From: Thermoanaerobaculia bacterium
Lineage (GTDB): Bacteria > Acidobacteriota > Thermoanaerobaculia > Gp7-AA8
Assembly (NCBI GenBank): GCA_036009105.1
Contig: DASYMJ010000043.1
Location: 25,658 to 89,657, forward strand
Direction of reading: 5' to 3'
Length of the DNA stretch: 64,000 bases
In this document: positions 11,243 to 29,410 of the stretch, piece after piece
How the letters are laid out: each line of letters opens with the position of its first letter
Numbering within the stretch: position 1 is the stretch's first letter
Position numbers and translations under genes: made by a program
Notes under the pieces: model-generated
Database searches by the model: none
What the model saw: the letters and a program-made list of their open reading frames with translations, nothing else
Told to the model about the DNA's origin: nothing

Positions 11243-11325
11243 GAATTGAGAATTGAGAATTGAGAATTGAAAAGAAGGCGAAGTCACCAGCCCATTTTCA
11301 ATTTTCAATTTTCAATTTTCAATTC
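11243..11325. repeat. Perfect palindrome of GAATTGA heptamer arrays at a divergent promoter
   Basis: The sequence is gaattgagaattgagaattgagaattgaaaag...ttttcaattttcaattttcaattttcaattc. Four heptamers on each arm are reverse-complementary. Confidence 0.75.
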
Positions 11326-11390
11326 GTGTATCCCCGCCCTGACGCCTATCCGCACGGCCATCCCGGGCGTCTGCAAGGAAAGACACTATT

Positions 11391-11427
11391 GCGTGTCTAC
11401 CTTTTTCCATCTAATATCCGCGACCCA
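11391..11427. promoter_or_regulatory. Candidate operator palindrome AGACAC-N6-GTGTCT, next to a TAATAT -10-like hexamer upstream of the NRPS operon
   Basis: The palindrome aAGACACtattgcGTGTCTac sits in a comparatively AT-rich 275-nt intergenic region. TAATAT lies about 14 nt downstream of it. Confidence 0.3.
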
Positions 11428-11487
11428 GGCCGAAACAGAAGGTTAACAGGACATTTCCCAGTAACTACTTGCAAAAAGGGACGAAGC

Positions 11488-12978
11488 GTGAACCGGACTC
11501 GCGATTCTCTTCCCGTTGCGGTAGGTGCTGTCCTGACGATTCCGGTCGTCGCGGCAGCGCTTTCCGCTTTCGGGCTTGTACCTTCCGCCGCGCTGCTCGT
11601 CGCGGCGTTGCTGGTGAGCGCCGCGTTCTTCGCGGCGCGCGAGCGCATCGCGCAGGCGCTGCAACTCCCGGAGGGAGGAAGCGCACCCGTCGTGTTCGCG
11701 CTGATCGGCGTGCTCGCGGCGGCCCGGCTGTGGGGCATGAGCTGGTTCATGATGGATTCCGCCCACGCGGAAGCCTCGGTCCTCTGGTTCGACCCCTTCT
11801 ACATGCGGCACAGCTGCTTCTCCTCTCTCTACCTCTCGGCCAGGCTGGCCATGGAGCACGCGCCGAACCCGTACCAGTCGGAGCTCTATGACACGGACCT
11901 CTACAAGTCCTTCCTCGGCCGCTTCACCATGGACGAGTTCCTCTATCCCTCCCCCTTCATGCTCCTGCCCCGCATCGGCCTCGCCTTCACGAAGTCGTTC
12001 ATGACGCTGCGCACCGCGTGGTTCGCCCTCGAGGCGGCCACGTTCGGCGCCGCGGTGGTGATCGTGGCGAAGTGGATCGGCGGCGAAGAGGGGAAGCGCG
12101 CGCTCTTCCTCGCGCCGGCGCTCTTCCTGGCCACGCCCGTCCTGCTCACCCTGCAGATCGGCAACTTCCAGCTGGCGGCCATCGCCATGACGATGCTCGC
12201 CCTCGTCGCCTTCGACTCGCAGCACAACGCCACCGGCGGCGCGCTCCTCGGCTTCGCCCTCTTCAAGATCTTCCCCGGCATCGTCCTCATCCCCCTGGCC
12301 ATCCAGCGCCGCTGGAAGGCCGTGGTCTGGACGGCCGGTTTCTCCGCGCTCTACACCGCGCTCTCCGTGGCCTGGCTGGGACAGACGCCGCTGCGCCGGT
12401 TCCTCGGCTACGGCCTGCCCCGGATCACGAAAGGGGAGGCTTGGTCCTTTCTCGAGCTGGACGTCCCGATCATCCACGAGGTGGTGGCCATCAACCAGGG
12501 CATCCCCGGCCTCGCCCTCAAGCTCCACGACCTCGGCGTAAACCTGGCCATGCACGACGCCGTGCAGAAGGTCTCGCTGGTCTACAGCGTGATCATGCTC
12601 GCGTTGGCGGTGGTGGTGGGTTTCCGCCTCGCGAAAACGGAAGACAAGCTCACCCGGGCCCAGCTCTGGATCGCCCTCATCGCCCTCGCCGCGCTGCGCA
12701 GCCCGTTCGTGCCGGACACCTACGCGCTGCCGCCCGTGCTCTGGCTGTGGAGCCTGGTGATGCCGCGCTTCTGGCACAAGCCGCTCGGTATCGCGTTGCT
12801 CTGGATTCCGCTCTCCACCGTCCTCCCCTTCGAAGGGCCGCTGGCACCGCTCGGCAACACGCGCCTCTTCCTCGGGTTCATCGTCCAGCTCTTCGCGCTC
12901 GCCTTCACCGGCGCGCTCTTCCTCCAGCGTGCCCCCCGGCCCGCCCCCGACCTGATTCAGGAGCCCGTCCAGTCATGA
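11488..12978 (+). CDS. Polytopic GT-C-like membrane protein (DUF2029/GT87 mannosyltransferase-like)
   Basis: At least 10 TM helices, with FALFKIFPGIVLIPL-type motifs seen in DUF2029/GT87 proteins. Start is placed at GTG 11488 behind an AAGGGA RBS. The track ORF start at 11260 reads through the (GAATTGA)n palindrome. The stop overlaps the next gene's ATG (ATGA). Confidence 0.5.
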   Translation: MNRTRDSLPVAVGAVLTIPVVAAALSAFGLVPSAALLVAALLVSAAFFAARERIAQALQLPEGGSAPVVFALIGVLAAARLWGMSWFMMDSAHAEASVLWFDPFYMRHSCFSSLYLSARLAMEHAPNPYQSELYDTDLYKSFLGRFTMDEFLYPSPFMLLPRIGLAFTKSFMTLRTAWFALEAATFGAAVVIVAKWIGGEEGKRALFLAPALFLATPVLLTLQIGNFQLAAIAMTMLALVAFDSQHNATGGALLGFALFKIFPGIVLIPLAIQRRWKAVVWTAGFSALYTALSVAWLGQTPLRRFLGYGLPRITKGEAWSFLELDVPIIHEVVAINQGIPGLALKLHDLGVNLAMHDAVQKVSLVYSVIMLALAVVVGFRLAKTEDKLTRAQLWIALIALAALRSPFVPDTYALPPVLWLWSLVMPRFWHKPLGIALLWIPLSTVLPFEGPLAPLGNTRLFLGFIVQLFALAFTGALFLQRAPRPAPDLIQEPVQS

Positions 12979-15233
12979 CCAGAAACCTGCGAGGCGCGCT
13001 CGGCGCGCTCCTGCTCCTTTCCGCCGCGAGCCTGCAGGCGGACGTGCCGCCGCCGCCCGACTCGAGCGCCGTCCTGCGCGTGCCGCGCCTGGCGGTGCAG
13101 CCGCACCTGCAGGACATCATCCCCTCCGGCGCCGCGGGCATGGCGCGGGTGACCGACCTGCGCCAGAACACCCCCAAGGACGGCGAGCCGGTCACCCTCG
13201 GCACCGCCGTCTACCTCGGCTACGACGACACGAACCTCTACGTCGCCTTCGTCTGCCAGGACGAGCCGGACAAGGTGCGGGCCCGCATCACGCGGCGGGA
13301 AGACATCTTCGGCGACGAAGGGGTGCAGATCTTCCTCGACACGTTCCACGACAAGCAGCGCGCGTACGTCTTCGCCGCGAATCCGTTCGGCGTGCAGCTG
13401 GACGGCATCACCACCGAGGGGCAGGGCTACGACTTCAACTTCGACACGCTCTGGTATTCGGAGGGGCGGATCACGAAGGACGGGTTCGCGGTCTTGATGA
13501 CCATCCCGTTCAAGAGCCTGCGCTTCGCGCCGGGGGCGACGCAGCGATGGGGCGTCTCGCTGAGCCGGATCATTCCGCGCAAGAACGAGTTCGTCTACTG
13601 GCCGTGGATCACCGACCGGGTGGAGGGCTTCGTCCCCCAGTTCGCCACCCTGGAGATCGACGAAGCGATCTCGCCCGGCCGCAACTACCAGTTCATCCCG
13701 TACTCGGTGCTGACGCATTCGCGCCTGCTGGAGCCGGGTGGGGCGGGGGCGCTGCGGCCGGCCGGCTACAACAACACCACGCCCGGGCGGGTGGGGCTCG
13801 ATGGCAAGTTCGTGTTGCGCGACTCGCTCGCCGCCGACCTGACCGTCAATCCCGATTTCTCCGAGGTGGAATCGGATGAGCCTCAGGTGATCGTCAACCA
13901 GCGCTTCGAGGTGCTCTTCCCGGAGAAGAGGCCGTTCTTCCTGGAGAACGCCGGCTTCTTCGGGACGCCGATGAACCTCTTCTTCTCCCGCCGTATCGCC
14001 GATCCGCGCATCGGCGCGCGGCTCACCGGACGGGTAGGCAGATGGGCGCTCGGCGGCCTGGCCATCGATGACCGGGAAGGTGGGCTGGGCCTGCCCACCG
14101 ACCATCCCCAGTTCGGGCAGCGGGCGAACATCGGCGTGGCGCGCATGCAGCGCGACTTCGGGCGTCAGTCGAACGCCGGCTTCCTCCTCACCAGCCGGGA
14201 CATCGGCGGCGTCTCCAACCGGGTGGCGGCGTTCGACAGCCGGGTCAAGATCAACGAGAACTGGACGGCGACGGGACAGCTCGGCAAGAGCTGGAACCGG
14301 GGCGGCTTCTTCGGCGACGTCAACGGCACGGCCGGCTACTTCGACGTCAACCGCTCCGGCCGCGTCTTCAACTACGACGGCCAGTACCGCGACATCAGCC
14401 GCGACTTCGTCAGCGACCTGGGGTTCATCCCCCGCACCGACATCCGCCAGACCGAGCATACGGCGAGCCTCAAGCGCTGGGCGGAAGGGACGAAGCTCTT
14501 CAGCTACGGCCCGAGCGTGACCGGCCTGGCCACGTGGGACCACGCGGGCGAGCTGCAGGACTGGCTCGGCTCCGGCTCCTTCAACTTCAACTGGGTGGGC
14601 GGCACGTCGCTCACCCTGACCAGCGACCAGGGGTACGAGCGCTTCGCCGGCCTCGATTTCCGCAAGCACCTGGAGACGGTGTCGGCGCGCACGGAGTGGT
14701 GGAAGTGGCTGACCGCTTCGCTGAGCTACTCGCAGGGGACGGCGGTGAACTACTTTCCCGCCCCCGGCGTCGACCCCTTCCTGGGCGACCGCAGGCAGGT
14801 GGTGGTCGGGTTCACGCTCAGCCCCTTCTCCCGCCTGCGCCTCGACGAGACGCTGATCTACGACGACCTCTACACGCGCAACGCGGTGGCCGGGGTCGAT
14901 GCGGGGAGCCTCGTCTTCCGCAACCCGATCTCGCGGACCAAGGTGAACATGCAGTTCAACCGCTACCTCGCATTGCGGTTGATCGTCGACACGCACGCCA
15001 TCACGCCGGACGAGTCGCTCGTCCTGCTGCCGCGGACGAAGCACGTCACGGGCGATGTGCTCTTCAGCTACGTCCTCAATCCGGGGACCGTGCTCTACCT
15101 CGGCTACTCCGACAACTACGACAACGTCGCGCTTCTGAACGGGCCGCCTTCCCAGGTGGTGGCCACCCATTCGGCGCTCAACCCGACGGCGCGGCAGTAC
15201 TTCATGAAGGTGAGCTACCTGCTCCGGTTCTGA
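12975..15233 (+). CDS. DUF5916/CBM9-like outer-membrane protein
   Basis: The signal peptide is MTRNLRGALGALLLLSAASLQA. The N-terminal CBM9/DOMON-like segment reads LYVAFVCQDEPDKVRARITRREDIFGDEGVQIFLDTFHD. The long beta-rich C-terminus ends in KVSYLLRF, with a terminal Phe typical of OM barrels. The track ORF 12018.. over-extends in frame; the ATG at 12975 overlaps the upstream stop. Confidence 0.6.
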   Translation: MTRNLRGALGALLLLSAASLQADVPPPPDSSAVLRVPRLAVQPHLQDIIPSGAAGMARVTDLRQNTPKDGEPVTLGTAVYLGYDDTNLYVAFVCQDEPDKVRARITRREDIFGDEGVQIFLDTFHDKQRAYVFAANPFGVQLDGITTEGQGYDFNFDTLWYSEGRITKDGFAVLMTIPFKSLRFAPGATQRWGVSLSRIIPRKNEFVYWPWITDRVEGFVPQFATLEIDEAISPGRNYQFIPYSVLTHSRLLEPGGAGALRPAGYNNTTPGRVGLDGKFVLRDSLAADLTVNPDFSEVESDEPQVIVNQRFEVLFPEKRPFFLENAGFFGTPMNLFFSRRIADPRIGARLTGRVGRWALGGLAIDDREGGLGLPTDHPQFGQRANIGVARMQRDFGRQSNAGFLLTSRDIGGVSNRVAAFDSRVKINENWTATGQLGKSWNRGGFFGDVNGTAGYFDVNRSGRVFNYDGQYRDISRDFVSDLGFIPRTDIRQTEHTASLKRWAEGTKLFSYGPSVTGLATWDHAGELQDWLGSGSFNFNWVGGTSLTLTSDQGYERFAGLDFRKHLETVSARTEWWKWLTASLSYSQGTAVNYFPAPGVDPFLGDRRQVVVGFTLSPFSRLRLDETLIYDDLYTRNAVAGVDAGSLVFRNPISRTKVNMQFNRYLALRLIVDTHAITPDESLVLLPRTKHVTGDVLFSYVLNPGTVLYLGYSDNYDNVALLNGPPSQVVATHSALNPTARQYFMKVSYLLRF

Positions 15234-15235
15234 CC

Positions 15236-18200
15236 ATGACCGACAACACCGAAAAGCTGGCCGGACTCTCCAGCGCCAAGCGGGCGCTGCTCGAAAAACT
15301 CGTGGCCGAGCGGCGCGCGGCGGCGGGAGAGGTGCGTCCCCGCCCGCGCCCGGAGCGGGTGCCGCTCTCGTTCGGACAGGAGCGCCTGTGGGTGGTGGAG
15401 CAGCTCGCGCCGGGCAGCGCCGCGTACAACGAGCCGGTCGTGTTGTGGCTCTCCGGCGCGCTCGATGTGGGCGCATTGGAGCGCGCGATCAACGAGGTGG
15501 TGCGGCGGCACGAGTCGTTGCGCACGGCGGCCCCTTCGGAAGGGGGGCGTCCGTTCCAGCGCATCGCTCCGTCTTTGACGGTGCCGTTGGTGCTCGCAGA
15601 GGCGACGTCGGATGAAGGAGCGCTGCAGATGGCCAGCAGTGTGATCGCCGCCTCCTTCGATCTCGCCCGCGGGCCGCTCGTGCGCGCGTTGCTGGTGCGG
15701 GTGGAGGCCGAACGGCACCTGCTCGCCATCGCCGTCCACCATCTCCTGATCGACGGCTGGTCGATCAACGTCGTCCTCGGCGAGCTGGCCCGCCTCTACA
15801 ACGGCGAGGCGCTGCCCGAGCCGCCGCTGCAGTACGCCGACTACGCGCTCTGGCAGCGCGAGTGGCTGGACGGCGAGCGCATGGACCGCCAGCTCGCGCA
15901 CTGGCGCGAGCACCTGGAGGGTTGCCCTTCCACCCTCGACCTCCCGGCCGACCGCCCCCGCCCGCCCGTGCAGAGCTTCAAGGGCTCCGTGGTACGGCAC
16001 CTCATCCCGCCCGACCTGTACGAGGCGATGGAGCAGTTCAGCCGGCGGGAGAACGTCACCCCGTTCATGACGCTCTTCGCCGCCTGGACCACGCTGCTGC
16101 ACCGCCTGACCGGGCAGGAGGATCTGCCGCTGGGCGTGGGCCTGGCCAACCGCCCGCGCGCCGAGCTGGAGTCGATCGTCGGCTTCTTCGTGAACACGCT
16201 CGTGCTGCGCACGCGCTTCGACGGCGCGCCGACGTTCCTCGACCTGCTGGCCCGCGTGCGCGAGACGACGCTCGGCGCGCAGGCCAACCAGGATGCGCCG
16301 CTCAGCCGCGTCCTGGAGTCGATGAAGCTCGACCGCGCGGCGAGCCACATGCCCTTCGTGCAGGTGATGCTCTTCTTCCAGAACTACGCGCAGACGGCGC
16401 TGGCCATGAACGGCCTGCGCGTCTCGCGCGTGCCGCTCGACCTCGTTCATCCCGGCTCCGCGCAGACGGACATCGCGCTCTTCGTCAACCAGGATGCGAC
16501 GGGCGAGCTGCTCTTCCAGTACAGCACCGACCTGTTCGACCGGGAGACCATCGAACGGCTCGCCGGGAACTTTGTGGTGCTGCTGCGCGCGGCCATTGCG
16601 GATGCGTCGCAACCGATCGCGCAGCTGCCGCTGCTCACCGAGGAAGAGCGCGTGCAGCTGGCAAAGTGGAATGACACGCGCGTGCCGTATCACCACGGGC
16701 CGCTCATTTCGCTCGTGCAGGCGGCGAGCGACAAACCGGCCGTCACGTTCCGCGGCCGCACCCTGACCTATGCCGAGTTGCGCGCCAGAGCCTCCGCGCT
16801 GGCGGACGAGCTGCGCGCGAGCGGTGTGAAAGCGGGCGACCTGGTGGGCCTCTTCGTGGAGCGCTCGCTGGAGATGGTGATCGGCATCGTGGCCATCCTG
16901 GAGGCGGGCGGCGCGTACGTGCCGCTCGATCCGTCGTACCCCGCCGAGCGGCTCGCCTTCATGCTCGGCGACGCCGGCGCGAAGGTGGTGGTGACCCAGC
17001 GCGAGCTGCGCGAGCAGGTGCCGGTGCAGGGTGTGGAAGTGGTGATCGCGGACGCGGAAAATGTGGGGGCCGGCTTCAGCCGGCCCGGGCGGGCTGAAGC
17101 CCGCCCCCACGTTGACGACCTCGCCTACGTCATCTTCACCTCCGGCTCCACCGGCCGGCCCAAAGGCGTGCAGATCACGCAGCGCTCCGCGGCGAACCTG
17201 CTGCAGTCCGTGGCGCGAGAACCGGGCATGAACGCGGGCGACACCATCTGCGCCGTCTCCACGCTCTCCTTCGACATCGCCCTGCTGGAGCTCGTGCTGC
17301 CGCTCACCGTCGGCGCGCACATCCTCCTGGCCGACCGCGACACCGTGCGCGACGGCAACGCGCTGGGCCGCCTCGTCGCGAACAACGACGTCACCATCAT
17401 GCAGGCCACCCCGGCCACCTGGCGCATGCTCCTCGACATCGGCTGGCGCGGGAAGCCGGGCCTGAAGATCATCTCCACCGGCGAGGCGCTGCCGCGCGAG
17501 CTGGCCGAGCGCCTCCTGCCCTGCGGCCGCGAGCTGTGGAACCTCTACGGCCCCACCGAGACCACGGTCTACTCCGCCCTCGGGCGCATCGAGTCCGGCA
17601 GCGGCCCCATTTCCATCGGCAGGCCGGTGGCGAACACGCAGATCCACATCGTCGACCGCAACCTGCAGCTCCTCCCGCCCGGCGTCCCCGGCGAGCTGCT
17701 CATCGGCGGCGACGGCCTGGCCCGCGGCTACCTCGGGCGTCCCGACCTCACCGCCGAAAAGTTCATCCCCGATCCGTTCTCCGATCAGCCTGAGGCGCGC
17801 CTCTATCGCGCCGGCGACCTCGCCACGTGGCGGCGCGACGGCACCCTGGAAGTCCTCGGCCGGATGGATCACCAGGTCAAGCTGCGCGGCTTCCGCATCG
17901 AGCTCGGCGAGATCGAAGCCGTGCTGGCCCAGCATGCAGATGTCGAGCAGGCGGTCGTGCACTGCCGTGAAGACCGGCCCGGCGACAAGCGCCTCGTGGC
18001 CTACACCACGGGCGGCGCAAGCACGGACGCGCTGCGCGAGCACCTCCGCAAGTCGCTCCCCGACTACATGATCCCCGCCGCCTTCGTGGCGCTGGAGCAG
18101 TTTCCCCTCACGCCGAACGGCAAGGTGAACCGCCATGCATTGCCGGCACCCGAGGCCTTTGCGGGGGCGGCTGTGGAACCTCCGCAGACGCGGGAGGAGC

Positions 18201-18502
18201 GGGAGATGGCCACGCTGTGGTCCGACCTCCTCGGCCGCCGCGACATCGGACGCAACGACAACTTCTTCGACCTCGGCGGCCACTCCCTCCTCGCCATGCA
18301 GATGCTGGCCCGGCTGGAGAAGGCGACCGGCGTCGAAGTTCCCCTGCGCGTCCTGTTCGACGTGCCCACCGTCGCCACGCTGGCCCGGCACGTGGCCGCC
18401 GTGCGCACGGCCAGCCTGGAGACGGAGAACCTCGACGAGCTGCTGGCCCAGCTGGAGGGGCTCTCCGACGACGAGGCGCTCACACGGAGCCAGCTGTCAT
18501 GA
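15236..18502 (+). CDS. Non-ribosomal peptide synthetase, module 1 (C-A-PCP)
   Basis: C domain motifs are [13 protein letters not shown] and [9 protein letters not shown]. A domain motifs are [87 protein letters not shown] and NGKV. The PCP motif is [13 protein letters not shown]. The real ATG is 3 nt after the DUF5916 stop, and the stop overlaps the NRPS2 start (ATGA). Confidence 0.9.
   Translation: [1088 protein letters not shown]
17063..17110. repeat. 48-nt GC-rich double-hairpin element inserted in frame in the NRPS1 A domain (codes [18 protein letters not shown])
   Basis: GTGGGGGCCGGCTTCAGCCGGCCCGGGCGGGCTGAAGCCCGCCCCCAC is a near-perfect palindrome. It is related to the GGGCCGGCT...AGCCGGCCC family. 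It sits just upstream of the A3 motif. Confidence 0.7.
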
Positions 18503-21500
18503 GTGATACCACGCAACGCATCGCCGACCTCTCGCCGCAGAAGCGCGCGCTCCTGCTCCAGCAGCTGGCGAAGGAGAAGGCCGCGCGCGGCCGCATCGTC
18601 CGCCGCGAGCGCCCCGACCCCCTCCCCCCCTCCTTCGCCCAGCAGCGCCTCTGGCTCCTCGACCAGCTCGAGCCGGGCTCGGCGAGCTACAACGTGCCGG
18701 CCGGCGCCTGGATGCGCGGCAAGCTCGATCTCGACATCCTGCGCCGCTGCCTGGAAGAGCTGGTGCGGCGTCACGAGGCGCTGCGCACCACCGTGCCTTC
18801 TTCGGACGGCCGGCCGCACCAGGTCATCGCCGCGCAGGGGCGCGTCGAGCTGCCGCTGTATCACGCCTCCTCGCGCGCCGAAGCGCGGGCCATCGGGCAG
18901 AAGGAGGCGACGCGGCCGTTCGATCTGGCCAAGGGGCCGCTCATGCGCACGCTGGTGGTGCGCCTGTCCGAGGAGGAGCATCTCCTCGTCTTCAACTTCC
19001 ATCACATCGCCGTGGACGGCTGGTCGTTCAGCGTCCTCTATCGCGAGCTCGGCGCGCTTTACGGGGCGTTCCTGCACGGCCGCCCGTCGCCGTTGCCGGA
19101 GCTGCCCATCCAGTACGCCGACTTTGCGCTCTGGCAGCGCGAGTGGCTGCAGGGCGACGTGCTGAAAGGCCAGCTCGACTACTGGACCGAGCGGCTGAGC
19201 GGCAACATCCCGGTGCTGGAGCTGCCCGGCGACCGCCCCCGGCCGGCGAAGCAGTCCTACCGCGGGGACGTGGTGCGCGTGGTCATCCCCGCGGAGCTGG
19301 TGGCCGCCGCCGCGCAGCGCAGCCGCGAGGAAGGCATCACCCTCTTCATGACCTTCCTCGCCGCGTTGAAGACGCTGCTCTTCCGTTACTCCGGACAGAC
19401 CGACGTCGTGGTCGGCTCCGGCATCGCCGGCCGCAACCGGGAAGAGCTGGAGCCGCTGGTCGGCTACTTCGTCAACACGCTCGCCTTGCGCACGGACCTC
19501 TCCGGCAATCCGACGTTCCGCGAGCTGCTGGCCCGCATCCGGGAGACGACCCTCGGCGCGTACGCGCATCAGGACCTGCCGGTGGAGCGGCTGATCGAGG
19601 AGCTCCACGTGGAGCGCTCCCTCGGCCACTCGCCGCTCTTCCAGGTGATGGTCTTCTTCCAGAACATGCCGCATCAGAAGCTGGAGCTGCCCGGCATCAC
19701 GCTCGAGCCGCTGCAGATGGACGAGGTCAACTCCGAGACTGCGCGCACCGATCTGGCGCTGTTCGTCGAGCGGCATGACGACGGCCTGGCCATCCTCTTC
19801 GAGTACAGCACCGACCTGTTCGACGAGGAGACCGTGCGCGCGTTCGGCGAGCACCTGGTGGTGCTGCTGCGCGCCGCGGTGGCGAATCCCGATACGAAGA
19901 TCGGCGAGCTGCCGCTGCTGACCGATGCCGAGCGGCACACGCTGCTCGTTTCCCGTACCGCGAACGCGGCGCCGGTTCCGTCCGCCACGCTCTCCTCGCT
20001 GTTCGAGCAGCAGGTGGCGCGCACGCTGGAGGCGACGGCGCTGATCTTCCCCGAGCGCCGGCTGACGTATCGCGAGCTGGACGAGCGGGCGAACGGCTTC
20101 GCCGCCGAGCTGCAGTCGCGAGGCGCGAAGCCGGGCGAGCTGGTCGGCATCTACACCGACCGCGGCCCGGAGATGGCGATCGCTCTGCTGGGCATCCTCA
20201 AGTCGGGCGCGGCCTACCTGCCGCTCGACCCCACCTATCCGCCCGACCGACTCGCCTTCATGCTCTCGGACACCGGCGCGCGGCTGGTCGCGACGCAGAA
20301 GCACCTGCGCGATGAGGTGCCGTCGAAGGATGTGGAGCTGGTCTTCGTGGACGCATGTCATCCTGAGGGCAGCGAAGGATCCCCCGGCTCAGGCGGCGCA
20401 CGTGCCGGGAGATCCTTCGCCGTCTCCGCGGCTCAGGATGACACCCCGCGCGCCACGCCCGACGACACCGCCTACGTCATCTTCACCTCCGGCTCCACCG
20501 GCAAGCCCAAGGGCGTGCAGATCCCTCATCGCGGCGCGGTGAACTTTCTCCTGGCCATGCTGGAGGCGCCGGGGCTCACGCCGGCGGACACCGTCTGCGC
20601 CATCACCACCCTCTCCTTCGACATCTCCGTCCTGGAGCTCCTCCTCCCGCTGATCATCGGCGCGAAGGCGGCGGTCAGCGACCGGGCCACGGCCACGGAC
20701 GGCAAGCGCCTCGCGCAGTTCATCAGGGACAGCGGCTCCACCGTCGTCCAGGCCACGCCCGCCTCCTGGCGCATGCTCCTCGACGCCGGCTGGGAAGGCG
20801 TGCCCGGGCTGAAGATCCTCTGCGGCGGCGAGCCGCTGCCGCGCGACCTGGCCGACCTCCTCCTGGCCCGGGTGGGGGAGCTGTGGAATGTCTACGGCCC
20901 TACCGAGACCACGGTCTGGTCGGTGCTCGACCGCGTGCTGCCGGACCAGCCGATCACCATCGGCAAGCCGATCCGCAACATGCGCATGTACGTCGCCGAC
21001 GCGAACATGCAGCTCGTCCCGGACGGCGTCCCCGGCGAGCTCCTCATCGGCGGCCTCGGCCTCGGCCACGGCTACGTCAACCGCCCCGAGCTCACCGCCG
21101 ACCGCTTCATCCCCGATCCGTTCAGCGGCATCGAAGGGGCGCGCCTTTACCGCAGCGGCGACATCGCCCGCTGGAGACGAGACGGCCGCCTGGAGATCCT
21201 CGGCCGCTCCGACGGCCAGGTGAAGCTGCGCGGCTTCCGCATCGAGCTGGGCGAGATCGAAGGCGCCCTGCGCGAGCACGCCGCGGTGCGCCAGGTGGTC
21301 GTCGTGCTGCGCGAGGACCGGCCGGGCGACAAGCGCCTCGTGGCCTACGTGGTTCCTCACCAGGCCGCGCCGGCCACGAACGAGCTCCGCGCGCATCTCC
21401 GCGCCATGCTCCCCGACTACATGATCCCCAGCGCGTTCGTCGTGCTGGAGAAGCTGCCCATCTCCCCCAACGGCAAGGTGGACCGCCGCGCGCTGCCTAT

Positions 21501-21834
21501 GCCCGAGCTCTCGGACATCAACGAAGTGGCCGCTCCCGTTGCGCCGCGCACGGCGGAAGAGGAGCAGCTGGCCGAGATCTGGGCCGACGTCCTCGGCCTC
21601 CCCGCGGTCGGCATCGACGACGACTTTTTCGTGCTCGGCGGCCACTCATTGCTGGCCACGCAGCTCATCGCCCGCGTCGGCCGCACGTTCGGCGTCGACC
21701 TGCCGCTGCGCCGGCTCTTCGAAGCGCCGACCGTCGCCTCGTTCGCCGCGGTGCTCGTGACCGAGATGATGTCGACCCTCAACGCGCTGAGCGAGGACGA
21801 GCTGCAGGCGCTCCTGGGAGGGCAGGCTCCTTGA
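18499..21834 (+). CDS. Non-ribosomal peptide synthetase, module 2 (C-A-PCP)
   Basis: C domain motifs are [13 protein letters not shown] and [10 protein letters not shown]. A domain motifs are [51 protein letters not shown] and NGKVDR. The PCP motif is [13 protein letters not shown]. Confidence 0.9.
   Translation: [1111 protein letters not shown]
20357..20442. repeat. MITE-like hairpin element (GTCATCCTGAG...CGAAGGATCC family) inserted in frame in the NRPS2 A domain
   Basis: The element is gtcatcctgagggcagcgaaggatcc-ccc-ggctcaggcggcgcacgtgccgggagatccttcgccgtctccgcggctcaggatgac, with terminal inverted repeats. It encodes [30 protein letters not shown] immediately upstream of the A3 motif. Confidence 0.75.
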
Positions 21835-21845
21835 CCGCCGAGTCG

Positions 21846-24800
21846 ATGGCCGCGCGCCTGGCGCGCCTCACCCCGCAGGAGCGCGCCCGGCTCCTGCGCA
21901 GCGCCGCCGCTCGCGCGACGGCCGTTCCCCGCCGCCCGGCCGGGCAGAACGAGCTGCCGCTCTCGCCCGCGCAGCAGCGGATGTGGTTCCTGGAACAGCT
22001 GCAGCCGGGCGCGTATCACTCCTACGACTTCACGCGCCTCATCGGTCCGGTCGATGTGGCGCGCCTCGACGCCGCCTTCCGGGAGATCGTCCGCCGCCAC
22101 GAGGCGCTGCGCACATCGTTCGTCAGCGTGGACGGCACGCCGCGGCAGCTCGTGCACGATGAGGTGCCGTTCTCCATCGCCTCCGTCACCGTGGAGGATC
22201 CCGAGGGTTTCGCGGACGCGGAGACCCTGCGCCCGTTCGATCTCACCCGGGCGCCTTTGCTGCGCGTGACGCTCGTGAACGGGCAACTGCTGCTGGTCAC
22301 GCTGCATCACATCATCTCGGACGGCTGGTCGCTCGGCGTCCTCGATCAGGAGCTGCGCGCGCTGTACGCCGGTGCGTCGCTGCCGGAGCTGCCGGTGCAG
22401 TTCGGCGACGTCGTGTTGTGGCAGCAGTCGCGGACCGGGGAAGGCGTGGACTGGTGGAAGCAGACGCTGAGCGGCGTTCCCGACGTGCTCGACCTGCCCG
22501 CCGACCACCCGCGGCCGGCCGTGCAATCCTTCCGCGGCGCGCGCGTCACGCACACGGTTTCGCCTTCGCTTCTCGCGGAGCTGAACGAGCTCGCCCAGCG
22601 CGAACACGTCACGCTGTTCATGCTCCTGGTCGCCGCCTTCGACGTGCTGCTCTACCGCCACACCGGCCAGAGCGAGTTCGCCGTCGGGACGCCGGTCGCG
22701 AACCGCACGCCGGAGACCGAGCCGCTGATCGGCCTCTTCATCAACACCATCGCCCTGCGGGCGAACCTGAGCGACGACCCATCGTTCCGCGAGCTGCTCG
22801 GGCGCGTGCGCGAGACGTCCCTCGAAGCGTTCGCCCATCAGGACGTGCCGTTCGACCGTGTGGTCGACGCCCTCGCATTACCGCGCAACGCCAATCGCAC
22901 GCCGCTCTACCAGACCATGATCGTCCTCGGCGCGGGGCAGGGGAGCTACGCGCCGCTGGGCGACATCGAGCGGGTGCCGTATCACCCCCACTCCGCCTCC
23001 GCGCGCTTCGACCTGACGCTGTCGATGGCCATCGACGAGACCGGCCTGGTCTGCCTCTTCGACTACGCGGCCGATCTGTTCGATCCGGCCACCGTCGAGG
23101 CCTTCGCGCGCCGCTACGAGATGCTGCTGCGCGGCGCGGCGGCTGATCCGAATACGGCGGTGTCTCGGCTGCCGCTGATGGATGCCGCCGAGCGCGGTGT
23201 CATCCTGAGCCGCGCGGCCGGCGAAGGATCCGTACCGCTCCTGCGCGATACGACGCTCCACGCACTTTTCCAGGAACAGGCCGCCCGCACGCCCGACACG
23301 CCCGCGGTGAACGACGTGACGTACGGGGAGCTCGACCGCTGGTCGGACGAGATCGCCGCCACCATCGACACCCACCTCGTCCCCTTCCTCGCCGACCGCA
23401 CGCCGGCCGCGATCGCGCAACTGCTCGGCATCCTCAAGGCGGGCGCCGCCTACCTCCCCATCGATCCCGCCACGCCGCGGGAGCGCCTCGACTGGCTCGT
23501 CGCGGACAGCAAGTCGGTGGCGCCGGGCGACAACGCATACGTGATCTACACCTCCGGTTCCACCGGCACGCCGAAAGGCGTCGTGGTCAGCCACCGCTCC
23601 GCGGTCAACCTGACCCTGGCTTTCGCGCAAAGCCATCAGTTTGCAGGTCACCGCCTGCTGATGATCCCGCCGCTGCACTTCGACGCCTCGGTGGGCGACG
23701 TCTTCCCCGCCCTCGCCACCGGCGCGACGCTCATCCTCCATCCGTCGCCCGCCGACCTCGACGCCCGCGCGCTGGCCCGCTTCTGCAACGAGCAGGGCGT
23801 CACCGCCATCGACGCGCCGGCCGCGCTCTGGCGCCGCTGGGCCGCGGAGTGGCAGCCCATCCCCGCGCTGCGCCTGATGATGGTGGGCGGTGAGTCGGTG
23901 CCGGTGGATGAAGTGCGCCGCTTCGCGCGCCTGACGAACAACCAGGTCCGCTTCGTCAACCACTACGGCCCGACCGAAGCGACGGTCTGCGCCACGACCT
24001 ATCACACCGTCGACGCGAGCGAGTGCACCACGACCGAGCTCCCCATCGGCAAGCCGATCGCGAACGTCTCCGCATACGTCCTCGACCAGCACCTCCAGCC
24101 GGTGCCGCGGGGCATCGCGGGCGAGCTGTACATCGGCGGCGCCGGCGTGGCGCGCTATCACGGCCGGGAAGAGTTCCTCCCCAACCCGTTCGGCGAGGGC
24201 CGCCTCTATCGCACCGGCGACCTGGCCCGCCGCCTCGCCTCGGGCGACCTCCTCTTCCTCGGCCGCGCCGACCGGCAGATCAAGCTGCGCGGCTTCCGCA
24301 TCGAGCCGGGGGAGATCGAGGCCGCCATCCTCGCCCACGCCGGCATCCGCGCTGCGATCGTGATCAAGCGCGAGGAGCGGCTCGTCGCCTATGTCGTCGG
24401 CGAGACGGAGCTGCAGTTGCACGACCGCCTGCCGGAGTACATGGTGCCGTCCGCGATCGTGCGCCTCGAGGCGCTCCCGCTGACGAGCAACGGCAAGGTG
24501 GACCTCAACGCGTTGCCCGCTCCCCCCCGCACGACCACCAGTTCCCGCGCGCCCCGCAACGAGACGGAGCGCGAGCTGCTGCGCATCTGGTGCGAGGTGT
24601 TGCAGGCAGACGGCCTCGGCATCGACGACTTCTTCGCGCACGGCGGCGACTCCCTCCGCACCATGCCCCTGGTGTTCAAGGTGCGGGAGCGCTTCGGCGC
24701 CGACCTCCCGCTCAGCTCCGTCTTCCGCGCCCCGACCGTGGCGCGCTTCGCCGCGCTCCTCACGCACGGAGCGCAGGCGGACGATCTGGAATCGAAAATC

Positions 24801-25886
24801 GGCACGTTCCGGGCGCCGGCCATCCGGCGCGCAAACATGCCGCCGAAGAACGTCCTCATCACCGGCGCCACCGGCTTCCTCGGCGCGTTCCTCCTCGACG
24901 AGCTGCAGCGCTCCACGAACGCCACCATCTACGCGCTCGTCCGCGCGGCGAACAAGGCAGACGCGATGCGTCGCATCCGGGAGAACCTCGCTTCTTACGG
25001 TCTGACGCCGGATGAGAAACGCATCGTTCCTCTGCTCGGAGACCTGGCCGAGCCGGGTCTCGGCATCACCGAGAACCTGGACGCCATCGACGTGATCTAT
25101 CACAACGGCGGCGCGGTGAACTTCATCGCGCCGTACGAGCGCCTCGCCGCGGCGAACGTGGACGGCACCCGCACGGTGCTGGCCATGGGCCGGCCGGTGC
25201 ACGTCGTCTCCACCCTGGGCGTCCATTTCACCAAGCCGCGCATCGGCCAAGTGGTGACCGAACAGGATCCCCTGCCGCCCGGCAAAGACATCCTGGGCGG
25301 CTACAACGAGACGAAGTGGGTCGCCGACCGCGTGGCCCAGCTGGCCCGCGAGGCCGGCGTGCCGGTCTCCATCCATCGCCCGGCGCGCATCACCGGCGAC
25401 AGCCGCACTGGCGCGCTCAACCCGGCCGATCTCTTTTACAGCTGGATCAAAGGCTGCGTGCAGCTGGGCAGCTTCCCGGACGACGCGCCGCTGCTGAACA
25501 TGGCGCCGGTCGACCACATCGCCCGCTCCATCGTCGCAATCTCCCTGCACATCGAGCAACCGGCCGACTACCACTACTTCAACAACCGCATGCTGCCGCT
25601 GGAGACGCTCGTCTCCACGCTCCGCCGCCGCGGCTTCGAAGCCTCCATCAAGCCGTACCGGCAGTGGATCGAACAGCTGCGCCACGCGCCGGAGAACCCG
25701 CTGGCGAAGTACCTGGCTCTGATGGAAGAGCCGGACCAGGGCGAGCCGGTGTTCGACTGCACGCGCACCGAAAACGCGCTGGCCCGGCTCGGCATCCTCT
25801 GTCCGGCGGCGGATGAAGCCCTGCTCGGCCTCTACCTCGACCAGCTCCTGCCCGAGCCGGCCATCGCCATGAAAGGACACCCATGA
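21846..25886 (+). CDS. Non-ribosomal peptide synthetase, module 3 with terminal thioester reductase (C-A-PCP-R)
   Basis: C domain motifs are [13 protein letters not shown] and [10 protein letters not shown]. A domain motifs are [81 protein letters not shown] and NGKVDL. The PCP motif is [12 protein letters not shown]. The R domain has [15 protein letters not shown] and GGYNETKW (Y...K). The start could instead be TTG 21831, overlapping the NRPS2 stop. The stop overlaps the MFS gene's ATG. Confidence 0.85.
   Translation: [1346 protein letters not shown]
23199..23250. repeat. Half-copy (left arm plus part of centre) of the MITE-like GTCATCCTGAG element in the NRPS3 C-A linker
   Basis: gtcatcctgagccgcgcggccggcgaaggatccgtaccgctcctgcgcg matches the left half of the full element at 29315-29410. 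It encodes [17 protein letters not shown]. Confidence 0.6.
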
Positions 25887-27196
25887 CCCGCCGCCGCGCA
25901 TTTCTCTGGATCTGGATCGGGCAGCTGATCTCCGTGATCGGCTCGCGCCTTTCCACGTTCGCCGTCGGCATCTGGGTCCTGCAGAAGACCGGCTCGACGA
26001 CGCAGTACGCCTTCATCTTCATCTGCATGGCCGTGCCGGCCCTGCTCCTCGCGCCGTTCGCCGGCGCGCTCGTCGACCGCTGGGACCGGCGCAAGGTGAT
26101 GATCGCCGCCGACGCGCTGGCCGCCTTCACCGTGCTCGGCCTCGGCATGCTGCTCTACCTCGACGCGCTCGAGCTGTGGCAGATCTACGTCGCCGCCGGC
26201 CTGCAGGCGGTCGCCACCGGCTTCCAGATCCCCGCCTACATGGCCAGCATCCCGCTGCTCGTGCCGAAGGAGCAGCTCGCCCGCGCGAACGGCATGGTGC
26301 AGACCGCGTTTGCCGCCGCGCAGATCGTCGGCCCCGCGCTGGCAGGCGTGCTGGTGAGCACCATCTCGCTCTACGGCGTCCTGTTCGTCGACTTCGTCAC
26401 GTTCGTGGCCGGCATCATCGCCCTCCTCGTGGTCGACGTCCCGCGCCCCGCGGCCGGCGAGCACGAAGAGAAGGCGCCAGCGCTGTGGCAGGAGGCGGCG
26501 GAAGGCTTCCGCTTCGTCCGCGAGCGGGGCGGCCTCCTCGGCCTGCTCACCCTCTTCGGTTTCACGAACTTCCTCTTCGGCATCGTCAGCATCCTCATCA
26601 CGCCGATGGTCCTCTCCTTCACGAACGCCGCGGGCCTCGGCATGCAGATGTCGATCGGCGGCTGCGGCCTGCTCCTGGGCGGCGTCCTGATGAGCGCCTG
26701 GGGCGGCCCGAAGCGGCGCATCCACGGCGTGCTCGCCTCCACCGTGTTCGCCGGCCTGATGCTGGCCATGCACGGCCTGCGCGCGGACATCTGGTTCGTC
26801 TCGGCGATGGGCTTCTTCTTCTTCATCTCCCTGCCGATCATGAACGCCTCCCAGGATTCGATCTGGCAGACCAAGGTGCCGGCCGCGCTGCAGGGGCGCT
26901 GCTTCGCCATCCAGCGCGTTTTGTCCGAGGCGGCGATGCCGATCGGTTTCTGCATCGCGGGCCCGCTGGCGGATCGCGTGTTCGAGCCGCTCCTGAGGCC
27001 GGGCGGTCCGCTGGCCGATTCCGTCGGCCGCGTGATCGGCGTCGGCCCCGGACGCGGCATCGCCCTGATCTTCATCGTCTCGGGCTTGACCATGGCGCTG
27101 GCCGGACTGGTCGGCTACGCCATGCGCGGGCTGCGCAACGTCGAGACCGATCTTGCCGACGCGCCGGTCGAGCCGGCGCCCGCTGTCGCTGCATGA
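25883..27196 (+). CDS. MFS transporter (EntS/macrolide-efflux-like), probable product exporter
   Basis: 437 aa with 12 predicted TM helices. The N-terminus MTRRRAFLWIWIGQLISVIGSRLSTFAVGIWVL is typical of the enterobactin-exporter EntS family. Its start overlaps the NRPS3 stop. Confidence 0.8.
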   Translation: MTRRRAFLWIWIGQLISVIGSRLSTFAVGIWVLQKTGSTTQYAFIFICMAVPALLLAPFAGALVDRWDRRKVMIAADALAAFTVLGLGMLLYLDALELWQIYVAAGLQAVATGFQIPAYMASIPLLVPKEQLARANGMVQTAFAAAQIVGPALAGVLVSTISLYGVLFVDFVTFVAGIIALLVVDVPRPAAGEHEEKAPALWQEAAEGFRFVRERGGLLGLLTLFGFTNFLFGIVSILITPMVLSFTNAAGLGMQMSIGGCGLLLGGVLMSAWGGPKRRIHGVLASTVFAGLMLAMHGLRADIWFVSAMGFFFFISLPIMNASQDSIWQTKVPAALQGRCFAIQRVLSEAAMPIGFCIAGPLADRVFEPLLRPGGPLADSVGRVIGVGPGRGIALIFIVSGLTMALAGLVGYAMRGLRNVETDLADAPVEPAPAVAA

Positions 27197-27210
27197 GTCC
27201 CGGAGAATCT

Positions 27211-27990
27211 ATGAGCGCAGACGACACTCACGAAAAAGCAATGGCCGCCGGTTGCCCCCACGCCACGCGCGCCGCGAGCCTTTCCATCCGTTCCGAGTCC
27301 CCCTCGGCGCCGGTCTCGCCCGAGCTTTTCACCATCAACCAGGTGGAGACGCTGATGGCGCCCGAGCATCCGCTGGCCGTCACCGCCAAATGGATGCGCC
27401 GTTTCCTGGCCCGGCCGCATCGCGAGCTCGGCCGCCCCGGCCCGGTCTGCCCCTTCGTCCCCGGCGCCATCGTGCAGGACACCATCTGGATGGCCGACTG
27501 CTCCCTCGGGCGCGGCGACCGGCAGGCCATCATCGAGATCATCGGCCTCTTCCGCGACCTCTTCCTCAACCTAGAGCCGAAGGGGGGCGATGCCGCGGCC
27601 TGGAAGGCGATGGTCATCGTCTTCCCGAACGTAGCCATCGAAGACGCGGATGTGATCGACCAGGTGCAGTCGGAGCTGAAAGCGCGCTTCGTCGACGCCG
27701 GCCTCATGATCGGCGAGTTCCACGAGCGGAACGAGAGCCCCGGCCTGCGCAACGACAACTTCCGCCCGCTGCGCAGCCCCATCCCGGCCCTGGCCATCCG
27801 CCACATGGTGGAGACCGACCTGCCGTTCCTCTACCGCACCCTCTATCCGCCGCCGTTGCGCGCGGAGTTCATCCGCTCCTATCTGCGCCGCCTGGGCGGC
27901 ACGATCAGCCGCAACAACTTCGACGCGGCGCTCGACGCGCTCGTGCTGGCGGAGATCGCCATCCGCACTCCGGAAGAGGTGACGACCTGA
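27211..27990 (+). CDS. Conserved hypothetical protein (259 aa) co-transcribed between the MFS exporter and KMO
   Basis: The ATG at 27211 lies behind a GGAG RBS. The track ORF 26176.. over-extends in frame. I recognise no known catalytic motif. Sequence landmarks are PGPVCPFVPGAIVQDTIWMADCSLGRGDRQAIIEIIGLF and FHERNESPGLRNDNFRPLRSPIPALAIRHMVETDLPF. Confidence 0.55.
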   Translation: MSADDTHEKAMAAGCPHATRAASLSIRSESPSAPVSPELFTINQVETLMAPEHPLAVTAKWMRRFLARPHRELGRPGPVCPFVPGAIVQDTIWMADCSLGRGDRQAIIEIIGLFRDLFLNLEPKGGDAAAWKAMVIVFPNVAIEDADVIDQVQSELKARFVDAGLMIGEFHERNESPGLRNDNFRPLRSPIPALAIRHMVETDLPFLYRTLYPPPLRAEFIRSYLRRLGGTISRNNFDAALDALVLAEIAIRTPEEVTT

Positions 27991-27992
27991 CC

Positions 27993-29306
27993 ATGGATCA
28001 CGTCGCGGTCATCGGCGGCGGGCTGGCCGGCTCGCTCTTCGCGCTGCGCCTGGCCCGGCAGGGGCATCGCGTCGACGTGTACGAGCGGCGTCCCGATCCG
28101 CGCCTGCGCCGCGGCGAAGGCGGCCGGTCGATCAACCTGGGCCTTTCCAAGCGCGGCATCGCCGCGCTGGGCGAGGTCGGCCTGCGCGAGGAGGTGCTCT
28201 CGCTCGCCGTGCCGATGGAGGGCCGCGTGATCCACACCCTGGACGGCGTGGAGCGCTTCCAGCCGTACGGCAAGAACCGCCAGGAAGTGCTGCACTCCAT
28301 CGACCGCAACGAGCTGAACGACCTGCTCCTCGATCGCGCCGAGGCTCATTCGCAGGTGCGTCTGCACTTCGAGCATCGCTGCGTCGGCGTCGATGCTGCC
28401 GCGCGCACCATCCTGGTCGCGGATGCTTCCGGCGCGGTCAGGCCGGTCAGCGCCGACTGGGCGGTCGGCGCGGATGGGGCGTTCTCCAAGATCCGGGAGG
28501 AGATGCAGCGCGGCCAGCGGGCGAACTTCAGCAAGGAGTTCCTGGAGTGGGGCTACAAGGAGCTGAACCTCCCCGCCCGCGCCGACGGCACTTCGCAGCT
28601 GCGCCTGAACGCCCTGCACGTGTGGCCGCGGGGCCACTGCCTCATCGTGTCCCACGCCAACCGCAACGGCTCGCACACCCTGACGCTGTTCCTGCCGTTT
28701 GAAGGCGCCGACAGCTTCGCCACCCTGCGCACGCCATCCGACATCAGCTCCTTCTTCGCCCGCTACTTCCCCGACCTCGTGCCGCTGTTGCCCGAGCTGC
28801 TGTCGCAGTGGGAGAGCCACCCGGTCGGCTCGCTCGTCACCACCCGCACCACGCCGTGGCACCTGGCGGATTGGATCGTCCTCGTCGGCGATGCCTGCCA
28901 CGCCGTCTATCCGTTCTACGGGCAGGGGATGAACTCCGCGTTCGAGGACTGCTCCGCCCTCGCCGCCGCCCTGGCCGCCCACCCGGCCCGCCTGGATGCC
29001 TTTCGCGCCTACGAGCGCTCCCGCCGCCCCCACACCGACACGCTGGCCGAGCTCTCCAAGGAGAACTTCGTCGAGCTCCGCCAGCGCGTGCAGTCGCCCC
29101 TTTTCGTCCTGCGCAAACGGATGGACGTCTGGCTCAACCGCCTCGCGCCGTCGACCTGGCTCCCCCTCTACACGATGATCGCCCACACCACGATGCCGTA
29201 CGGCGACGCCCTGGCCCGCGCGCGGCGGCAGGACCGGTTGCTGTTGTCGCTGGCCGGCGCCTGCGGGGTGGCAGTGCTGGGGGCGCTGGCGCTGCTATTG
29301 GGGTAA
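27993..29306 (+). CDS. kmo: Kynurenine 3-monooxygenase (FAD-dependent), with a hydrophobic C-terminal tail
   Basis: The FAD fold is VAVIGGGLAGSLFAL. KMO-specific segments are YERRPDPRLRRGEGGRSINLGL, NALHVWPRGHCLI and VLVGDACHAVYPFYGQGMNSAFEDC. These closely match the Pseudomonas KMO motifs FERRPDPR/RGRSINLAL, NALHIWP and [23 protein letters not shown]. The C-terminal 22 aa (LLLSLAGACGVAVLGALALLLG) are hydrophobic. The start is 3 nt after the upstream stop. Confidence 0.85.
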   Translation: MDHVAVIGGGLAGSLFALRLARQGHRVDVYERRPDPRLRRGEGGRSINLGLSKRGIAALGEVGLREEVLSLAVPMEGRVIHTLDGVERFQPYGKNRQEVLHSIDRNELNDLLLDRAEAHSQVRLHFEHRCVGVDAAARTILVADASGAVRPVSADWAVGADGAFSKIREEMQRGQRANFSKEFLEWGYKELNLPARADGTSQLRLNALHVWPRGHCLIVSHANRNGSHTLTLFLPFEGADSFATLRTPSDISSFFARYFPDLVPLLPELLSQWESHPVGSLVTTRTTPWHLADWIVLVGDACHAVYPFYGQGMNSAFEDCSALAAALAAHPARLDAFRAYERSRRPHTDTLAELSKENFVELRQRVQSPLFVLRKRMDVWLNRLAPSTWLPLYTMIAHTTMPYGDALARARRQDRLLLSLAGACGVAVLGALALLLG

Positions 29307-29314
29307 GGTACCGT

Positions 29315-29410
29315 GTCATCCTGAGCCGCGGAGACGGCGAAGGATCCGTACCGATCTTGCGCCGCGCCTGAAGGTTCGGATCCTTCGTCCTCTTCGGGAC
29401 TCAGGATGAC
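29315..29410. repeat. Full-length MITE-like hairpin element (GTCATCCTGAG...CGAAGGATCC family)
   Basis: The left end is gtcatcctgagccgcggagacggcgaaggatccgtaccgatcttgcgccgcgcctgaaggttcggatccttcgtcctcttcgggactcaggatgac, with a variable centre. The element is 96 nt, with 26-30 nt terminal inverted repeats. Confidence 0.8.

Follow-up and report, generated by a model that had tools for sequence, protein, structure and literature searches.

A palindrome resembling CGTC-tagged REP dimers lies in frame, probably tolerated, in an adenylation-domain loop of a Thermoanaerobaculia nonribosomal peptide synthetase

Repetitive extragenic palindromes (REPs) carrying the unpaired terminal tag CGTC, or its variants TGTC and CCTC, have been described as a superfamily of four families (CGTC-1 to CGTC-4), found in five phyla as of 2013 (Di Nocera, De Gregorio & Rocco 2013, BMC Genomics 14:522, PMC3733652). 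In brief, the tag is followed by a stem of 8-9 bp whose first two positions are complementary A-T residues, a loop of 4-5 nt (with longer-loop exceptions in some CGTC-1 and CGTC-3 hosts), and a short unpaired tail of 3 nt with the consensus CCA. Dimers are mostly head-to-head (HH) with spacers of 20-100 nt and can fold into one long hairpin. According to the same paper (PMC3733652), these REPs are mostly intergenic, lie between convergent or co-directional genes near 3' ends, sometimes giving stop codons, and have no dedicated transposase; a minority of the dimers, of both CGTC and GTAG REPs, are intragenic and encode, in frame, 20 to 30 amino acids, and RPE-4 and RPE-6 of Rickettsia are counted as CGTC REPs. 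Here, an element of this appearance is described from a 64,000-nt stretch of a Thermoanaerobaculia bacterium (contig DASYMJ010000043.1 of assembly GCA_036009105.1; G+C = 68%; the whole stretch is henceforth called the window), where it lies within NRPS2, the second of three co-directional nonribosomal peptide synthetase (NRPS) genes whose ends overlap or nearly adjoin. Two proteins encoded in the window match those of a metagenome-assembled genome of Thermoanaerobaculia (Acidobacteriota) at 100% identity.

Three further systems are relevant for comparison. GTAG-tagged REP doublets of the REPIN/RAYT type are mobilised by a single-copy HUH tyrosine transposase (RAYT, REP-associated tyrosine transposase); the CGTC-type tag is not known to have a RAYT or other transposase. 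Rickettsia palindromic elements (RPEs), reportedly described by Ogata et al. in 2000 and 2002, are palindromes that lie in frame in ordinary enzyme genes and are translated as an extra surface peptide, which is tolerated; RPE-1 is about 100-150 nt long and occurs in Rickettsia only. Bacterial MITEs (miniature inverted-repeat transposable elements) that fuse to or interrupt open reading frames (ORFs), e.g., Correia/NEMIS and Nezha, make target-site duplications and derive from identifiable insertion sequence (IS) families.

The NRPS2 element is a near-perfect palindrome with the ends TGTCATCCTGAG and CTCAGGATGACA, in which two CGTC/TGTC-tagged units face each other around a spacer (Table 1). 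Its translation in the frame of NRPS2 reads CHPEGSEGSPGSGGARAGRSFAVSAAQDDT, and residues 620-649 of the protein (CHPEGSEGSPGSGGARAGRSFAVSAAQDD followed by T) derive from it. An earlier note, made from the letters of this DNA alone, had delimited an 86-nt hairpin at 20357-20442 with the terminal inverted repeats gtcatcctgag and ctcaggatgac. These repeats (20357-20367 and 20432-20442) are indeed perfect and the core stands as described; the extent does not, as the repeat gains one base per side to reach 88 nt, and the inner right arm, given there as ggatccttcg, actually reads agatccttcg. The stem of the left unit consists of six Watson-Crick pairs and a tandem G.A/A.G. The insert is flanked by ...VELVFVDA and ...PRATPDDTAYVIFTSGSTGKPKG and lies in frame between the core motifs A2 and A3 of the adenylation (A) domain, with A3 starting nine codons downstream, which agrees with the placement after A2 and directly upstream of the P-loop proposed earlier. 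As RNA, the palindrome folds into an almost unbroken hairpin of -66.7 kcal/mol (z = -4.0; 0 of 200 shuffles were as stable), and as DNA it reaches z values of -5.5 to -6.4 that no shuffle equals; chance does not account for the feature. Downstream of the hairpin comes CCCCGCGCGCC without a U-tract, and a terminator scan found no intrinsic terminator at the element, so that a role as an intrinsic (Rho-independent) terminator was ruled out.

NRPS2 was compared with a set of 14 orthologues (68-90% identity), of which one (P0004, 82%) is encoded in two independent assemblies (loci L121 and L122; NCBI GCA_019242175.1 and ENA ERZ27313880) and on a JGI contig (L125). The insert recurs in all three, hence it is not an assembly artefact. 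Twelve of the 14 orthologues have a short loop of 0-20 residues from the strand to A3, unrelated in sequence and without REP-derived letters; in P0003 (86%), this loop is as long as in NRPS2 with no recognisable REP peptide; and only in P0004 does it carry the NRPS2 insert, reading DECHPERSEGSVPSGAARDRYGSFAVSAAQDDT... Because the loops of 12 orthologues are short and unrelated and the 82% orthologue alone carries the insert, the segment is, by these alignments, an insertion and not an ancestral loop, as the earlier note had proposed; it had named conservation of the 30 residues in distant homologues as the counter-indication, and no such conservation was seen. Among 120 homologues, REP-type peptides were found only in the window protein and P0004, the remaining 118 having none. 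When metagenomes were scanned for a REP end with the A3 motif within the next 67 nt, the species of L121 and a single doubtful case (L126) were all that came up, so that REPs in this loop are a lineage-specific feature and not a general one.

At the nucleotide level, the L121 copy is a 96-nt dimer whose position and orientation are those of the window copy, and it shows the same unusual heterodimer build, with a 5-nt loop (CGCAG) in the left unit and the 12-nt loop CCGCGGAGACGG in the right unit. The REP units of the two copies are identical at 59 of 62 nt (95%; 33 of 34 nt in the right unit), whereas the gene reaches 82% and the spacer 50% (Fisher p = 0.002). By this comparison, constraint or homogenisation acts on the nucleic acid of the hairpin units; the peptide is not its target. 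The nucleotide identities (window-L120 0.88, window-L121 0.82, L120-L121 0.815, window-L123 0.75) point to the tree ((window, L120), L121), L123. Over the length of the gene, identity to each of three orthologues stays even, and no recombination breakpoint was found at the REP. L120 is without the element but keeps TCGCC--CTCCGCGGC of the right unit in the right place and frame (shuffle p ~0.02), probably as a remnant of that unit.

The simplest history suggested by these sequences is a single old insertion followed by differential decay. One insertion would have taken place after the split from L123-type lineages, in the common ancestor of the window and at least two sister lineages; the element would then have been retained in L121 (96 nt), shortened internally to 88 nt in the window lineage, where the spacer drifted and shrank, and for the most part deleted in L120. 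At 96 nt, the L121 form divides by three, and it is free of stops in the phase that is read (CHPE...AQDD); a canonical homodimer of 98 nt would meet a TGA in the phase of the NRPS2 insert. Given 96 nt, no target duplication, and no stop in phase, the reading frame would have survived the insertion.

The claim that the NRPS2 hairpin belongs to a repeat family was borne out by dispersed palindromic copies at five further loci of the window, to which all copy counts in this paragraph refer. The six loci of this CGTC-type family share a common consensus and comprise five HH dimers and one singlet, with spacers of 20-24 nt; the full intergenic copies align as palindromes of 97-98 nt. The 11-mer GTCATCCTGAG occurs 12 times at up to one mismatch versus 1.24 expected, and none of 100 shuffles reaches 12. 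One copy lies between convergent genes, two lie between co-directional genes, one lies over a stop codon, and two are intragenic (NRPS2 and NRPS3). The units begin with TGTC (GTGTCATCC...) and end in the tails CCC or CCG; loops have 5 nt only in the left unit of the NRPS2 copy and 11-13 nt in all remaining units. All dimers fold into long hairpins (z -5 to -8), and the terminal inverted repeats of the copies measure 12-13 nt (TGT...ACA). No target-site duplication was found around the four full copies, nor at the NRPS2 site when compared with the orthologues. Additionally, an ABC ATPase gene takes its final codons and its TGA stop (39971-39981, ...Q V S S stop) from the left tag and stem of a CGTC REP dimer.

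One genome per species was scanned with the pattern GTCATCCTGAG-N8-24-CGAAGGATCC, which yielded at least 119 loci compared with an estimated chance expectation of about 5 matches under uniform base composition. Among the matches listed, the unit GTCATCCTGAG-loop-CGAAGGATCC is present in more than 10 phyla and in genomes of 32% to 69% G+C, the hosts including Acidobacteriota, Fibrobacter (Fibrobacterota), Clostridia, Chloroflexota, Verrucomicrobiota, Gemmatimonadota, Myxococcota, Patescibacteria, and others. The consensus of the unit is (T/C)GTC - ATCCTGAG - variable loop - CGAAGGAT - CCN, where the stem ATCCT/AGGAT closes on the tandem G.A/A.G (GAG facing CGA) and the GAG/CGA core is invariant. 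Stem positions 3-5 covary among the matches listed (CCT/AGG, the seeded type, 173; TCT/AGA 31; TCC/GGA 7; CCC/GGG 5; GTT/AAC 3), with mismatched combinations at these positions scattered only. Among the 214 units of the 119 listed loci, TGTC serves as the tag of 133 and CGTC as that of 66, and the tails are CCC (90), CCG (32), CCA (32), and CCT (22), of which CC was required by the search pattern. Loops range from 5 to 26 nt across the listed loci, and in those of other genomes 116 singlets stand beside 64 dimers, the latter being HH (45), tail-to-tail (11), or head-to-tail (8). Tandem partial duplications of tag and stem were seen in three loci (L001, L049, and L097).

Since the tag, the stem starting with A-T, the CCN tail, and the HH dimers match the published description (PMC3733652), the NRPS2 element can be placed by its sequence in the CGTC-tagged REP superfamily, where it is filed by superfamily and not by one of the named families CGTC-1 to CGTC-4. 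Rfam gave no match for either repeat family in the window at gathering thresholds, and searches at E-values up to 10 gave nothing relevant, neither for 29200-43300 nor for six loci from other phyla; a sub-threshold Rp_sR47 match in a Patescibacteria locus (L019) lay at a different position and was rejected as unrelated. A search of full-text literature with the raw 11-mers returned PCR primers only. A 64-aa composite REP-peptide query against a collection of 5.8 billion proteins returned two short hypothetical ORFs, such a query being unsuited to counting in-frame copies. No mobilising gene lies beside any window copy (a Pfam scan of the neighbours found ordinary genes), no Y1/HUH (Y1_Tnp-type) transposase gene lies beside the window copies or recurs in the 119 listed loci, and in an all-against-all clustering of the 3469 ORFs of these loci, the recurrent neighbours were limited to ABC ATPases, in 8 loci, and short-chain dehydrogenases, in 5 loci.

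The preceding gene, NRPS1, carries a second palindrome whose translation, NVGAGFSRPGRAEARPHV, starts directly after ...VVIADAE. The pattern of its family is AA(T/C)GT(G/A)GGGCCGGCTCTCAGCCGGCCC - spacer - inverted copy, the NRPS1 copy being without the spacer, and its GTAG/GTGG tag marks it as a dimer of the other REP superfamily treated in PMC3733652. The earlier note had placed two hairpins of different repeat families at the homologous A-domain loop of the two genes. Both parts of this claim hold: the inserts fall into one alignment column, each following the "(A/V)DA" that ends the same beta-strand, and their tags are GTAG/GTGG in NRPS1 and CGTC/TGTC in NRPS2. The NRPS1 dimer is also present in the L121 orthologue, where the differences from the window copy are compensated. 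A survey of the loop in related genomes, which the note had suggested, again found REPs in NRPS2 of L121 and in the NRPS1 loops of L121, L123, and L124; the A2-A3 loop of NRPS1 contains a degenerate CGTC unit in L123 (TGTC-ATCCTGAG...CGAAGGAC) and a GTAG-like dimer in L124. Further GTAG-type copies lie at 1866-1931 and 54570-54634 of the window, and a single unit lies at 38564-38591. The latter is in frame (NVGPALQPA) in the linker of a fusion gene (37727-39235) of the solute-binding and permease components of an ABC transporter. In the NRPS1 orthologue of L123 (11900-12010), a second extra segment, DEILPSAGRQNAGGPADGNVGAP, was seen one loop upstream of the A2-A3 loop; being GC-rich and partly self-complementary, it may be another decayed REP.

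Table 1 Coordinates of the NRPS genes and of the REP-type features in the window (C, condensation; A, adenylation; T, thiolation domain; HH, head-to-head)
Feature	Position	Strand	Description
NRPS2 element	20356-20443	+	HH pair of CGTC/TGTC-tagged REP units (88 nt)
Left REP unit	20356-20383	+	tag TGTC, stem ATCCTGAG, 5-nt loop GGCAG, stem CGAAGGAT, tail CCC
Spacer of NRPS2 copy	20384-20407	+	ends self-complementary, CCCGGC / GCCGGG
Right REP unit	20408-20443	-	inverted; GTCATCCTGAG CCGCGGAGACGG CGAAGGATC on minus strand; 12-nt loop
A3 core motif of NRPS2	20470-20514	+	AYVIFTSGSTGKPKG
NRPS1 insert	17060-17113	+	HH dimer of GTAG/GTGG-tagged REP units, no spacer, 54 nt
Single CGTC-type unit (half copy)	23198-23240	+	in frame, C-A linker of NRPS3, GVILSRAAGEGSVP
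Full HH dimer, 98 nt	29314-29411		intergenic; convergent 3' ends of FAD monooxygenase gene and AcrB gene
Degenerate HH dimer	32838-32921		between HlyD-type and AcrB genes of one operon; left tag and stem decayed
Full HH dimer, 97 nt	39971-40067		overlaps 3' end of ABC ATPase gene 39226-39981
Full HH dimer, 98 nt	43047-43144		intergenic, TauE gene / Ser/Thr kinase gene
NRPS1	15236-18502	+	C-A-T
NRPS2	18499-21834	+	C-A-T module, 1111 aa; host gene of the element
NRPS3	21846-25886	+	C-A-T-reductase

The full NRPS2 module was modelled with AlphaFold2 from 52 aligned sequences (mean predicted local distance difference test score (pLDDT) 86.5; predicted template modelling score (pTM) 0.78). The sole internal segment with a pLDDT below 50 comprises residues 624-646, inside the insert, which as a whole has values of 38-50 and forms a coil between the predicted strands 613-616 and 657-663; the structure prediction suggested by the earlier note shows the insert as low-confidence coil. 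In a phmmer search against PDB sequences, the A domain aligned over its full length to LgrA and others, with a gap of 15-17 residues in LgrA at the insert. Of the two alternatives offered in the note, a permissive landing site or selection for keeping such inserts, the former has direct support, given that the length of the loop varies greatly, that it is predicted to be disordered and is a gap in solved structures, and that REPs are found in it again in other lineages. All intragenic REPs seen sit either in this loop, as in NRPS1, or in linkers, namely the NRPS3 C-A linker, the linker from the thiolation to the reductase domain (T-R linker) of the L121 NRPS3, and the transporter linker at 38564-38591. 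The C-A linker of the L121 NRPS3 (14770-15020; orthologue 80% identical) contains three CGTC units that account for 73 extra residues with repeated VILS motifs, and its T-R linker holds a GTAG unit (L121 16606-16630) that is missing in the window. Such a placement is what a filter of tolerance acting on insertions would produce; as each module offers few permissive sites, two insertions at homologous ones are unsurprising.

The three NRPS genes belong to a cluster (11260-29306) with the order GT87 - DUF5916 - three NRPS genes with a terminal reductase - MFS - DUF6875 - FAD monooxygenase, and the same NRPS cluster order is syntenic in several metagenome-assembled genomes of Thermoanaerobaculia/Acidobacteria (L121, L123, and L124). 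Elsewhere in the window, inverted repeats that belong to neither REP family were noted at 62546-62627 (30-nt arms, 83% complementarity) and 9748-9827 (18-nt arms, 89%). A tandem motif of pentamers/heptamers (GAACGATGAACGATGAACGA), with an inverted copy opposite it (TCGTTCATCCTTCATCGTTC), was noted at 34235-34295, immediately upstream of the HlyD-AcrB efflux operon; it could be an operator and is unrelated to the REP families.

Our preferred explanation, to which we assign a probability of about 0.78, is that a tolerated selfish REP dimer occupies the permissive A2-A3 loop of NRPS2 and is read in frame there. The element is a non-autonomous REP-class palindrome, with two CGTC/TGTC units head-to-head around a short spacer as in a REPIN-like doublet, and its insertion site falls precisely on a codon boundary, in the surface loop connecting the post-A2 strand with the P-loop motif A3. 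Its translation is a loop of about 30 residues rich in Gly, Ser, Ala, and Pro, probably disordered, which would leave the A-domain fold undisturbed and would therefore be tolerated, being presumably neutral or nearly so for the enzyme. With a GTAG-type dimer in the same loop of NRPS1, insertions would appear to survive only at variable loops and inter-domain linkers of this large multidomain enzyme. Mobilisation may proceed by recognition of the single-strand hairpin by some enzyme, by analogy with RAYT-mobilised REPs.

Several points weigh against this explanation. No mobilising enzyme was found among the window neighbours and the 119 listed loci. Tolerance by the enzyme is something we infer from the structure prediction and from the persistence of the insert. 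The survey covered 64 kb of the genome, and the copy counts and the share of intragenic copies apply to this stretch. Finally, a neutral passenger should decay like the spacer, whereas the units have remained far closer to those of L121 than either spacer or gene (see above). Such conservation, which is general behaviour of REP families, might be due to selection on the RNA or DNA structure, to gene conversion from other copies, or to hairpin-templated repair.

The conservation of the units also speaks for an alternative in which the hairpin is kept for a role at the RNA or DNA level in the NRPS1-2-3 operon of about 10.6 kb and the peptide is a by-product; it could act as a block to 3'-5' exonuclease, as a processing site, as a translation pause between the A-domain subdomains, or as a site for gyrase or a nucleoid protein. 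Exonuclease-blocking and processing roles have been shown for intergenic REPs in operons of Escherichia coli. Besides the divergence pattern, the great stability of the hairpin as RNA, the presence of one REP in each of the three co-transcribed NRPS genes, and the retention of pairing despite changes on both arms are in favour of such a role, the latter applying to the NRPS1 dimer and to the spacer-proximal stem of the NRPS2 copy (CCCGGC/GCCGGG in the window versus GTACC/GGTAC in L121). However, compensated arms can arise without selection through hairpin-templated repair or gene conversion, the role would not be that of an intrinsic terminator, and most of the element has been lost in L120 and was never present in the distant orthologues, although the gene cluster is otherwise conserved. 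We therefore regard this alternative as unlikely. A broader version, which we hold to be improbable, states that the REP units in all three NRPS genes are kept by selection (on mRNA stability or processing, a translation pause, or DNA topology) and tune the megasynthase operon, and that the occurrence of the unit in more than 10 phyla reflects a conserved trans-acting mobiliser or processor enzyme recognising the hairpin.

The label "MITE-like" used in the earlier note is not specific enough, since there is neither a target-site duplication nor a related transposase and the anatomy is that of a REP dimer. A classical MITE, i.e., a deletion derivative of an IS with a DDE transposase, moved by cut-and-paste through its terminal inverted repeats, would account for the repeats of 12-13 nt (TGT...ACA), for the small size and several copies, and for the loci of other phyla in which units form the ends of elements of about 220 nt (L070 and L113). 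It is nevertheless very improbable, as no window copy has a target-site duplication, no transposase gene recurs beside the units of the 119 listed loci or lies beside the window copies, what is conserved is a hairpin module whose stem positions covary, and the many units that stand alone among the listed loci (116 singlets versus 64 dimers) are inexplicable by DDE-type transposition. That the segment is a protein loop or linker with a function of its own (for example, as a surface for docking or regulation) and bears only an incidental likeness to the repeat is scarcely credible, in spite of its in-frame persistence across two lineages with 18% protein divergence, because the DNA is unmistakably a copy of an intergenic repeat, the spacer-encoded middle of the peptide is not conserved, and the segment is deleted in the closest orthologue (L120), predicted to be disordered, and missing from solved A domains.

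In-frame insertion of REPs or RPEs is an established phenomenon, and the present case does not overturn current understanding. New are the host phylum, Acidobacteriota, for CGTC-tagged REPs, to which the genome scan adds many further phyla; the type of target gene, an NRPS with a natural map of insertion-tolerant sites; and the three-lineage history of one insertion, in which the hairpin units stayed 95% identical while spacer and host gene drifted. The REPs amount to a natural insertional scan of NRPS modules that marks the A2-A3 loop in two paralogous modules (with a 30-residue insert), the C-A linker, and the T-R linker as tolerant positions, which would be safe sites for tags or fusions. 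For annotation, REP inserts inflate the apparent diversity of A-domain loops and can mislead predictors of specificity or domain boundaries.

In comparison with known systems, the NRPS2 element shares with the Correia/NEMIS and Nezha MITEs its small size, its terminal inverted repeats, the capacity to form a hairpin, and the ability to add in-frame coding sequence, and differs from them in that it has no target-site duplication and that no parent IS was found. By description, it resembles RPEs as an in-frame palindrome that is translated and tolerated; here, however, the host is a free-living, high-GC member of the Thermoanaerobaculia and the target is a megasynthase of secondary metabolism. 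Like REPIN/RAYT elements, it is an inverted REP doublet that forms a long hairpin and has no target duplication, and its copies were long kept at orthologous positions with conserved sequence. The NRPS1 element with its GTGG/GTAG tag fits that class directly, whereas the tag of the NRPS2 element is TGTC and not GTAG, and no RAYT-type gene lies beside the window copies. With the CGTC REPs, the NRPS2 family has in common the TGTC tag, a stem that starts with A-T and then T-A, the CCN tail, and the predominance of HH dimers, and the window copies further agree with them in their positions near gene 3' ends, the supply of a stop codon, in-frame intragenic dimers, and the lack of an associated transposase. 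The family departs from the published description in three respects: the stem ATCCTGAG / CGAAGGAT (8 positions) conserves a tandem mismatch, G.A/A.G; the loop often measures 9-26 nt and forms a hairpin of its own, versus 4-5 nt; and the host range extends beyond the five phyla of 2013 and includes the Acidobacteriota.

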